1,246 bases of DNA from Naegleria gruberi (taxonomy: Eukaryota). Shown here piece by piece: positions 1-1,246 of this stretch. The first letter of the stretch is position 1; each line of letters starts with the position of its first letter. The translations under genes were made by a program, and so were the position numbers. Below the pieces are notes generated by a model. It was not told where the DNA came from and searched no databases. It was given only the letters and a program-made list of their open reading frames with translations. The stretch lies in the NCBI GenBank assembly GCA_000004985.1, contig GG739479.1; one strand, written 5' to 3'.

Positions 1-446
1 CTCAGATCTTGGAGAGCACATCTTAAATCTCTAACTTCAGCAATACTAACTGCTGTTCTAGGAGTATATTTTTGAATTCCATCATCACCAGTTGGAAATA
101 ATGTGACAGAATACTCAAAGGAAACAGATCTAGCACTACAACTACTGCATTTCTTTTCTGGATTGCCATAGTTAAAGCCTAGTGCACAACCATATTTTGG
201 CATTTTGAACTCTAAATTTTTGTCGCAACCATCATAGTAAAAACAGGATTCACGATCATAAAGGTTTGGCAAATTGTATGCAAGGTTGTCAAAGTAATTG
301 GTTAAGTTGGAACACACCATTTTTGCTATTTGTTCCTTTCTGTCTAGCAGAGCAGCGAATGTGGCTGGTGCCTTGGGACCGCTTTGTTGAAATGAGAGAG
401 ATACCAGAAGAAAGCCGAGCAATAACAAGGGTACAAGCTTTTGCAT
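1..446 (-). CDS. Hypothetical secretory-pathway protein, N-terminal 148 codons (cleavable signal peptide or type II signal anchor followed by a Cys-rich lumenal/extracellular region); 3' end of gene lies beyond window start; family not recognised
   Basis: Manual translation of the minus strand from ATG at 446-444 (context caaaaaaaaaaacaaaATGc). All 148 in-frame codons down to position 3 are open; I checked that no + strand triplet tta/cta/tca occurs in this frame. Product: MQKLVPLLLLGFLLVSLSFQQSGPKAPATFAALLDRKEQIAKMVCSNLTNYFDNLAYNLPNLYDRESCFYYDGCDKNLEFKMPKYGCALGFNYGNPEKKCSSCSARSVSFEYSVTLFPTGDDGIQKYTPRTAVSIAEVRDLRCALQDL... It has a 16-residue hydrophobic core (residues 4-19) directly after M-Q-K, an NLT sequon at residue 47, and seven Cys including CFYYDGC and CSSC. 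It is absent from the ORF track only because no stop falls inside the window. Same strand and yeast-like codon usage as the neighbouring SAM gene. Confidence 0.7.
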   Translation of the reverse strand, partial: MQKLVPLLLLGFLLVSLSFQQSGPKAPATFAALLDRKEQIAKMVCSNLTNYFDNLAYNLPNLYDRESCFYYDGCDKNLEFKMPKYGCALGFNYGNPEKKCSSCSARSVSFEYSVTLFPTGDDGIQKYTPRTAVSIAEVRDLRCALQDL

Positions 447-498
447 TTTGTTTTTTTTTTTGAGTGATGGAAAGGTGTTTTGGGTTACCTATTGGCTA

Positions 499-526
499 TG
501 TTTCGTTCACTTAGTTTCGTTCACTT
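499..526. repeat. Tandem direct repeat, 13-bp unit GTTTCGTTCACTT x2 (500-512 and 514-526) separated by 1 nt
   Basis: Exact identity of the two units, read directly from the sequence. Confidence 0.85.
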
Positions 527-564
527 TCCAAACACAATAAAAATGGCATTGCCCAAGTGAAATG

Positions 565-598
565 GTGAACGAAACAATCCAAGTAAGGAAAACGAAAC
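565..598. repeat. Inverted copies of the same motif: GTGAACGAAAC (565-575, perfect reverse complement of GTTTCGTTCAC) and AACGAAAC (591-598, 8-bp partial copy)
   Basis: The reverse complement of 500-510 equals 565-575 exactly (11/11; 12/12 when 499 is paired with 576). The 591-598 copy matches the first 8 bp. Together with the direct repeat this forms a palindromic array centred near 544. Confidence 0.8.
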
Positions 599-639
599 TA
601 TTAGCGTTTGTGGAACTTTTGTGCAAATTTTAAATATTT

Positions 640-707
640 CGCAAAAATAAGCATTTGTAAAATATTATTCTTTGTTTTTAATTTTTTAGTTTATTGGCTT
701 TCCTAAT
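640..707 (-). terminator. 3'UTR / polyadenylation region of the SAM synthetase gene (AT-rich, yeast-type signals)
   Basis: Immediately 3' of the TAA stop on the minus strand. The minus-strand sequence reads ttaggaaagccAATAAActaaaaaattaaaaacaaagaataatattttacaaatg, with AATAAA (+690-695) 13 nt after the stop. An A-rich tract and a TATTTTACA/TTTGTA-like efficiency element follow. No rho-independent hairpin is expected in a eukaryote. Confidence 0.4.
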
Positions 708-1246
708 TTAGAGTTGGAGAGTCTTTGGTTGTTCCCATGGGAATTCGCTTCTTCCAAAGTGACCATAAGCAGCAGTTGGTGAGTAGATTGGGTTCATCAA
801 GTTCAAATCCTTAATGATGTGATATGGTCTCAAATCAAAGTTCTTATTGACAATAGCCAAAATATCAGCATCAGTCTTACCGTTCAAAGCAGTACCATAG
901 GTATCAACGTGAACAGACAATGGGTGAGCAATACCAATAGCATAGGCAACTTGAACCAAACATCTCTTAGCCAAACCAGCAGCAACGACGGACTTAGCAA
1001 CCCATCTTGCAGCATAAGAAGCAGATCTATCGACCTTAGATGGATCCTTACCAGAGAAAGCACCACCACCGTGAGCACCCCAACCACCATAAGTATCAAC
1101 AATAATCTTTCTACCAGTAAGACCAGCATCACCTTGTGGACCTCCGATAACGAATCTTCCAGATGGGTTAAGATGGTAAATAGTAGCATCATCCAACAAA
1201 TTGGCTGGAATAACTGGAACAATGACGTGTTCCTTCAATGACTTTG
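708..1246 (-). CDS. SAM2: S-adenosylmethionine synthetase (methionine adenosyltransferase, MAT/MetK family; yeast SAM1/SAM2 ortholog), C-terminal ~179 aa including TAA stop at 710-708; 5' end of gene lies beyond window end
   Basis: The translation carries MAT hallmark blocks: [67 protein letters not shown] and, further on, [22 protein letters not shown] through [22 protein letters not shown]-stop. The frame stays open upstream of the track's TTG 'start' (codons K-S-L at 1239-1246), so the true ORF runs off the window. The GGWGAHGGG and C-terminal PWExPKxL tail are eukaryotic-type. Codon use is strongly biased toward GGT, CCA, AGA, TTG and AAG, as in highly expressed yeast genes. Confidence 0.95.

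Follow-up and report, generated by a model that had tools for sequence, protein, structure and literature searches.

The window, that is, the whole stretch of DNA that was analysed (1,246 nucleotides), is an entire 1246-bp scaffold of N. gruberi. This scaffold is unplaced, and because the window takes up all of it, extension of the contig was impossible in that assembly. The following features were located (coordinates in the window, strand, description):

1..446, minus strand: exon 1 coding sequence of 148 codons, truncated at its 3' end where the scaffold stops (open frame, homologues, pN/pS)
390..446, minus strand: start codon and signal-type segment, aa 1-19 (MQK + L4-F19; hydropathy, homologue alignment)
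279..365, minus strand: predicted long helix, aa ~28-56, ATFAALLDRKEQIAKMVCSNLTNYFDNL (helix 28-49 and 30-56 in two AlphaFold models, low confidence)
1..278, minus strand: Cys-rich region, aa 57-148 (six of the seven invariant Cys; the seventh, C45, lies in the preceding helix)
266..463, plus strand: spurious 65-aa TTG-initiated ORF, antisense to the conserved exon under purifying selection
447..707, no strand: AT-rich spacer, 261 bp (GC 0.30 vs 0.39 and 0.42 in the flanking coding parts; stops in all frames)
500-512 and 514-526, plus strand: tandem pair of GTTTCGTTCACTT copies lying 54-80 bp before the ATG (candidate cis-regulatory element)
565-575, plus strand: inverted copy of the same CGTTCAC motif, GTGAACGAAAC
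591-598, plus strand: degenerate copy of the same CGTTCAC motif, AACGAAAC
708..1246, minus strand: S-adenosylmethionine (SAM) synthetase, C-terminal 178 codons and stop, cut by the scaffold end (PF02773, E = 8e-69)

The open frame at the left end of the window was analysed by translation, shuffling and codon-position statistics. On the minus strand, an ATG at 446-444 is followed by 148 codons without a stop, and the frame leaves the window at position 1. Its product is MQKLVPLLLLGFLLVSLSFQQSGPKAP...RCALQDL, or, in a longer rendering, MQKLVPLLLLGFLLVSLSFQQSGPKAPATFAALLDRKEQIAKMVCSNLTNYF...VRDLRCALQDL. An in-frame stop was found 17 codons upstream of this ATG, with no in-frame ATG between the two, and the bases preceding the start codon are AAAAAAAAAACAAA. 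Each of the other five frames of positions 1-446 contains 7-15 stops. When positions 1-446 were shuffled with the dinucleotides preserved, a fully open frame (in any frame) was obtained in 6 of 20,000 shuffles (p about 3e-4). The GC content at codon positions 1, 2 and 3 of the 148-codon frame was 0.46, 0.39 and 0.30, a gradient of the coding type. The frame is missing from the program-made ORF list because that list reports only ORFs closed inside the window. The exact 148-aa sequence was likewise absent from a collection of 15e9 proteins, and it is therefore unannotated.

Coding character was also evident from the substitutions. When the window exon was compared with the N. fowleri coding sequence and with that of an environmental relative (described below), pN was 0.20-0.22 and pS, which is saturated, was 0.78-0.90. 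Relative to N. fowleri, 41, 20 and 96 differences were counted at codon positions 1, 2 and 3 (pN 0.20, pS 0.90); relative to the environmental coding sequence, the corresponding counts were 42, 25 and 85. The segment from 446 to 1 evolves as protein-coding sequence under purifying selection. A preliminary description of this DNA, made from its letters and its ORF list, had proposed a real, truncated minus-strand gene, starting at ATG 446-444 and running off position 1, which the ORF list had missed, and had dismissed the overlapping plus-strand ORF at 266..463 as spurious. The frame was recovered on translation, the gene was confirmed by homologues and purifying selection, the omission follows from the way in which the list was made, and the plus-strand ORF proved to be antisense to conserved coding sequence.

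An exhaustive phmmer search of 1.84e9 representative proteins was performed with the 148-aa fragment, and exactly two matches were obtained. The first was N. fowleri FDP41_004522 (P0121, 553 aa), with E = 6.8e-65 and 73% identity between query residues 7-148 and target residues 12-150, and the second was Willaertia magna ABK040_009573 (P0122, 656 aa), with E = 5.8e-30 and 45% identity to the fragment. A third homologue was found on an ENA metagenome contig of Naegleria-like origin (L002:90-554, 64-66% identity to the window exon); MSLRLCAIVVLLVLSLSITLQQSGPAAP...CALQDLRFNYRD is encoded there, after which come a GTAAGT intron and the remainder of protein P0126. All four sequences begin at an equivalent Met. 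Their alignment contains 51 invariant columns, among which are all seven cysteines of the window (C45, C68, C74, C87, C100, C103 and C143), and the Cys spacing is the same in the window exon and in the N. fowleri and W. magna homologues. By sequence similarity, the window fragment is assigned to a heterolobosean orthologue group typified by FDP41_004522.

The N. fowleri protein (FDP41_004522 / CAG4709659.1) and W. magna ABK040_009573 can be aligned with the window exon from the start codon onwards. These orthologues are full-length, whereas the window holds exon 1 only, and their genomic neighbours differ. In N. fowleri, synteny was absent, as the gene is flanked by an RCC1/RGS gene and Syf1 rather than by SAM synthetase. 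A literature search by the accession numbers of the homologues returned nothing, and FDP41_004522/CAG4709659.1 and ABK040_009573 are uncharacterised. Metagenome scans for further family members found none. A word-index protein search with the 148 residues also gave no match, though the 73%-identical relative sits in the same collection; since that relative was missed, the negative is no evidence of orphan status. Word-index negatives on short queries should not, in general, be taken to mean 'orphan'.

The full-length homologues are about 580-660 aa long. According to their alignment, an N-terminal hydrophobic segment is followed by the Cys-rich region, by the block INQIYVAGEYAP.INTYPGL.WR...[F/L]xYRxRxW[F/Y] and by a VWA-like domain. 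After the VWA come the block W..[F/L]Y.DLL...FLGVVGVDVP, a short Cys-rich stalk (LRGGxCNYCNxPCG), one hydrophobic helix and a tail that is short and acidic. When a family profile was compared with PDB sequences, the calcium-channel subunit alpha2delta-1 was matched at E = 6e-15 (8if3_A, 7mix_D, 5gjv_F and others). Profile positions 209-485 aligned to alpha2delta residues 234-493, covering the RxW[Y] element before the VWA, the VWA itself and the Y...GVDV element after it, where a Cache strand ends in GVDV, and the alignment thus spans both flanks of the VWA. In all homologues, a sub-threshold match to the second half of the Pfam Cache model MCP-like_PDC_1 (model positions 65-107; 19-25 bits vs a 27-bit cut-off) was located after the VWA. 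From a 5-row alignment, AlphaFold2 modelled the N. fowleri protein over its full length at a pLDDT of 41.6, with the VWA alone predicted confidently (pLDDT 70-89). When this model was compared with the PDB by Foldseek, the best matches were alpha2delta-1 and Cachd1. On this evidence from profile, model and structure comparison, the VWA domain of the family, which lies outside the window, and the VWA of alpha2delta are judged homologous. No similarity to alpha2delta was detected in the 148 residues that the window itself encodes, the likeness starting only past the exon 1 boundary, and the predicted alpha2delta-like assignment of the window gene rests on the downstream parts of its orthologues.

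In eukaryotes, a VWA domain is inserted in dCache_1, and single dCache_1 domains with a VWA insertion occur in diverse protists, Heterolobosea being listed among the lineages (Gumerov et al. 2022, PNAS, PMC8915833). In a survey made before that, one adenylate cyclase was the sole Naegleria protein in which Cache was detected (PMC4822843). The homologues appear to match the layout of the protist proteins in their predicted N-terminal signal, a putative distal Cache module split by the VWA and a predicted C-terminal anchor; they likewise have one Cache unit, with the RxW[Y/F]...Y...D positions conserved. Within the amino-acid motif YxxxxRxWY...Y...D, which falls outside the window, R, W, [F/Y], Y and D are kept. 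The first Tyr, however, is F in Naegleria and L in Willaertia. The family further differs from the protist proteins in about 95 residues with 7 Cys between the N-terminal helix and the Cache, which have no detectable counterpart elsewhere, and in the distance from the distal Cache module to the transmembrane helix. This distance is about 55 residues, which is too few for a canonical membrane-proximal PDC module.

The comparison with alpha2delta-1 (CACNA2D1; 5GJV_F, 7MIX_D, 8IF3_A) and CACHD1 (8S7C_A) gave a similar picture of likeness and difference. The VWA and the flanking Cache halves appear homologous to those of the family, and both groups are extracellular, with a signal peptide and a C-terminal anchor, features that are predicted for the family. 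The Naegleria proteins, however, have about 590 aa, whereas alpha2delta and CACHD1 have about 1,000-1,100 aa, and they lack the second dCache_1, canonical alpha2delta and CACHD1 consisting of two nested dCache_1 domains. Neither VWA_N nor VGCC_alpha2 Pfam signatures were found in the homologues. Owing to the half length, the one Cache unit and the lack of these two signatures, the family is not classed as canonical alpha2delta; on sequence grounds, it is filed as a single-dCache_1/VWA, alpha2delta-like surface protein. Of the three homologues, the environmental one has an intact MIDAS motif DxSxS (DYSSS); in N. fowleri (DYSSV) and W. magna (DMSSV) the last Ser is replaced, and the motif is imperfect in these two, a difference from alpha2delta. 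CACHD1 is reported to have a disrupted MIDAS, and the loss of the last Ser in N. fowleri and W. magna recalls it.

At the N-terminus of the exon product, M-Q-K is followed by 16 mostly hydrophobic residues (L4-F19), with a mean Kyte-Doolittle value of 2.0-2.5 in 15-residue windows. A hydrophobic N-terminus stands at the same place in all four homologues and is followed by a conserved QQSGP. The signal-type start that the preliminary description had seen (MQK and 16 hydrophobic residues) is borne out by the hydropathy and by its constant position. Residues 1-19 are most readily read as a cleaved signal peptide, and by the -3/-1 rule cleavage probably falls after S-L-S18 or shortly after. The segment might instead be an uncleaved first transmembrane helix, so that two membrane spans would hold the ectodomain, as they do in receptors of the bacterial dCache_1 type. 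In bacteria, a dCache_1 domain normally has a transmembrane helix on either side (PMC8915833), and the orthologues do have a second, C-terminal one. Against this arrangement, the hydrophobic core comprises just 16 residues after a 3-residue n-region, and small residues occupy -3 and -1 (S-L-S, S-F-S, S-I-T) before the conserved QQSGP in the three Naegleria-type sequences. Moreover, the hydrophobic stretch is poorly conserved in sequence, as is usual for signal peptides, and animal alpha2delta proteins have a cleaved signal peptide. An uncleaved anchor was therefore considered unlikely, and a cleaved signal peptide is retained as the likeliest reading.

Downstream of the signal-type segment, the four-sequence alignment contains the conserved motifs LDRKEQIA and CSNLT within the predicted helix (aa ~28-56), which may be a candidate stalk helix preceding the Cache module. 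For the Cys-rich residues 57-148, no homologue outside Heterolobosea was detectable, either by phmmer among the 1.84e9 representative proteins or by a profile against the PDB. The 148-residue fragment had no Pfam match, and a profile of the four N-terminal regions had no match among PDB sequences. AlphaFold2 was also applied to the window fragment (3-row alignment; pLDDT 37.3), and the N-terminal region reached a pLDDT of 20-40 in both AlphaFold models. Both models were too poor for a fold to be assigned to this region.

Between the two coding parts, the spacer at 447-707 was measured at 261 bp and 30% GC, in agreement with the preliminary description, which had resolved an apparently non-coding stretch into a gene and a 261-bp spacer. 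Within this spacer would lie the 3' flanking sequence of SAM synthetase as well as the new gene's promoter and 5' leader. Scanning the window for Rfam families and tRNAs gave no match. The CGTTCAC / GTGAACG core, which in the window extends to GTTTCGTTCAC, was counted three times in the window vs 0.07 expected. In N. fowleri, CGTTCAC is present 55-61 and 21-27 bp upstream of the ATG, with one further copy about 290 bp upstream; these sites (L001 9712-9718, 9940-9946 and 9974-9980) are the only three in 21.8 kb. In the environmental contig, the motif lies at 67-73, 17-23 bp upstream of the ATG, and is the sole copy in 2.1 kb. CGTTCAC was thus found upstream of the gene in all three Naegleria-type loci. 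From this conservation it is probably a cis-regulatory or promoter element of the gene, and its presence supports a working promoter in the spacer.

A wider proposal joins these observations. Exon 1 might constitute a domain confined to Heterolobosea, composed of the helix and a 7-Cys module of about 95 residues, that was grafted onto an ancient eukaryotic VWA-in-Cache sensor; the product might then serve Naegleria as a functional extracellular amino-acid/ligand sensor or channel auxiliary subunit, co-regulated through the conserved CGTTCAC promoter element. This proposal is tentative, and we regard it as more doubtful than convincing. If it were true, the protein, being surface-exposed and conserved in the pathogen N. 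fowleri, could be a lineage-specific surface marker.

The structure of the gene was deduced from its relatives. A short GTAAGT...CAG intron follows ...DLR..YR[T/D] in both N. fowleri (L001 10470-10510) and the environmental contig (555-587). The window ends at ...QDL, six codons before this conserved intron, and therefore contains nearly the whole of exon 1. The two N. fowleri gene models conflict at this point (L001 10466-10530), FDP41_004522 (553 aa) being without 39 residues of the Cache module that are present in CAG4709659.1 (592 aa). Judging from the homology of AKYLIDN in the environmental protein and NKLLIDD in W. magna, the N. fowleri intron acceptor is probably the upstream CAG, which would place SKYK in front of VDDTINQ; neither model would then be quite right.

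Elsewhere in N. gruberi, a single family member was found, NAEGRDRAFT_54870 (P0125, EFC35523.1), which is a 347-aa model encoded on a scaffold of 4849 bp. The C-terminal 61% of the family is all that it spans, and it begins inside the VWA (MRSSNGY... vs LRSSTGY of the homologues). Its identity is 63% to N. fowleri and 60% to the environmental protein, the same rank order as for the window fragment (about 73% and 65%). Circumstantially, the remainder of the window gene would be this truncated model on the other scaffold. Read most simply, a single gene has been split between two small scaffolds, and about 90 codons, with the MIDAS region among them, together with one short intron would be missing from the assembly at the break. 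The N. gruberi VWA would then be encoded on the second scaffold or within this gap. An intact N. gruberi gene would then continue downstream of the 148 visible codons, and it looks missing because the assembly breaks it.

Alternatively, the exon could be a dead fragment, left from a duplicated gene whose 5' piece has become a pseudogene or an orphan on this unplaced mini-scaffold and has lost its link to a working 3' part. Just exon 1 is seen, the scaffold is unplaced and has 1246 bp, synteny with N. fowleri is lacking, and the other N. gruberi member, being without an N-terminus, might come from a different copy. The exon nevertheless runs for 148 codons without a stop or frameshift and keeps all 51 family-invariant residues, the seven Cys included, as well as the upstream CGTTCAC motif. 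Its pN/pS is strongly below 1, a ratio that mostly reflects the long shared history, and the searches turned up no further N. gruberi copy that has an N-terminus. Decay of the exon is accordingly rated very unlikely, and one gene split by the assembly is preferred.

That the 148-codon frame might be a chance ORF in non-coding DNA, as its absence from the ORF list and the lack of Pfam and word-index matches could suggest, was refuted by three independent homologues with matching starts and by substitutions concentrated at codon position 3, together with the shuffling p of about 3e-4 and the sensitivity failure behind the word-index negative, and this explanation has next to no probability left.

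With a probability of about 0.85, positions 446 to 1 are almost the whole of exon 1 of an unannotated N. gruberi gene for an alpha2delta-like VWA/Cache type I surface glycoprotein of about 590 aa. This reading starts from established points, namely the coding nature of the exon, its start codon, which matches the starts of the orthologues, and the homology of the orthologues' VWA, with its putative Cache flanks, to alpha2delta. The predicted protein would comprise, in order, a signal peptide, a long helix, the 7-Cys region, the first Cache (PDC) part, the inserted VWA and the rest of the Cache, and would end with a short Cys-rich stalk, one transmembrane helix and a short acidic tail. Such an architecture would be a 'single dCache_1 with VWA insertion', related to alpha2delta and CACHD1 of animal voltage-gated calcium channels. 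Transcription would proceed from a promoter in the 261-bp spacer with its CGTTCAC repeats. The hydrophobic N-terminus would direct the protein into the ER and be cleaved, and the Cys-rich part would form disulfides in the ectodomain. The protein may then sense extracellular ligands, possibly amino acids, or may partner a membrane channel.

On this reading of a split VWA/Cache gene, the N. gruberi annotation gains a missing 5' exon, and it is explained why the reference proteome has only the headless 347-aa NAEGRDRAFT_54870 for the family. With such a headless model, domain surveys based on the proteome miss or misread the protein. The family would represent a compact, one-Cache relative of alpha2delta/CACHD1 in a deep-branching eukaryote and bears on the origin of the VWA-in-Cache sensor; the brain-eating amoeba N. 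fowleri, too, has it as a conserved, predicted surface protein. Three points are of some interest: a Cys-rich N-terminal module that is restricted to one lineage, an upstream motif that is conserved, and a corrected N. gruberi gene set.

The neighbouring SAM synthetase fragment is 100% identical to P0001 (EFC35259.1 / XP_002668003.1, 'predicted protein, partial [Naegleria gruberi]', 177 aa), and the next-best SAM synthetase in the database has 81% identity. Its codon use is strongly biased (TTG for 11 of 15 Leu, GGT for 16 of 19 Gly, GCT for 17 of 20 Ala and AAG for 11 of 11 Lys), and this bias is that of a highly expressed gene. In the new ORF, codon use is relaxed, with Leu spread over six codons and AAA used 6 times and AAG 4 times. 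The preliminary description had noted that the new gene shares both strand and codon style with the SAM gene. The tandem arrangement on the same strand stands, but the shared codon style does not, as the antisense frame of the exon scored as high as, or even higher than, the true frame against the SAM codon table; codon similarity to the SAM gene was accordingly rejected as evidence. Its yeast-type frame of reference was also mistaken, given that the SAM fragment is identical to a protein of the amoeboflagellate N. gruberi. A search of fungal proteomes would therefore have found nothing. The yeast-like appearance arose because SAM codon use is extremely biased, and an A-rich start context with AGA/TTG/GGT codon use does not identify a yeast. 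Two mechanical ORFs, 819-1241 on the plus strand (140 aa) and 884-1222 on the minus strand (112 aa), occupy other frames of the SAM coding region; they arise from its biased composition and are not genes.
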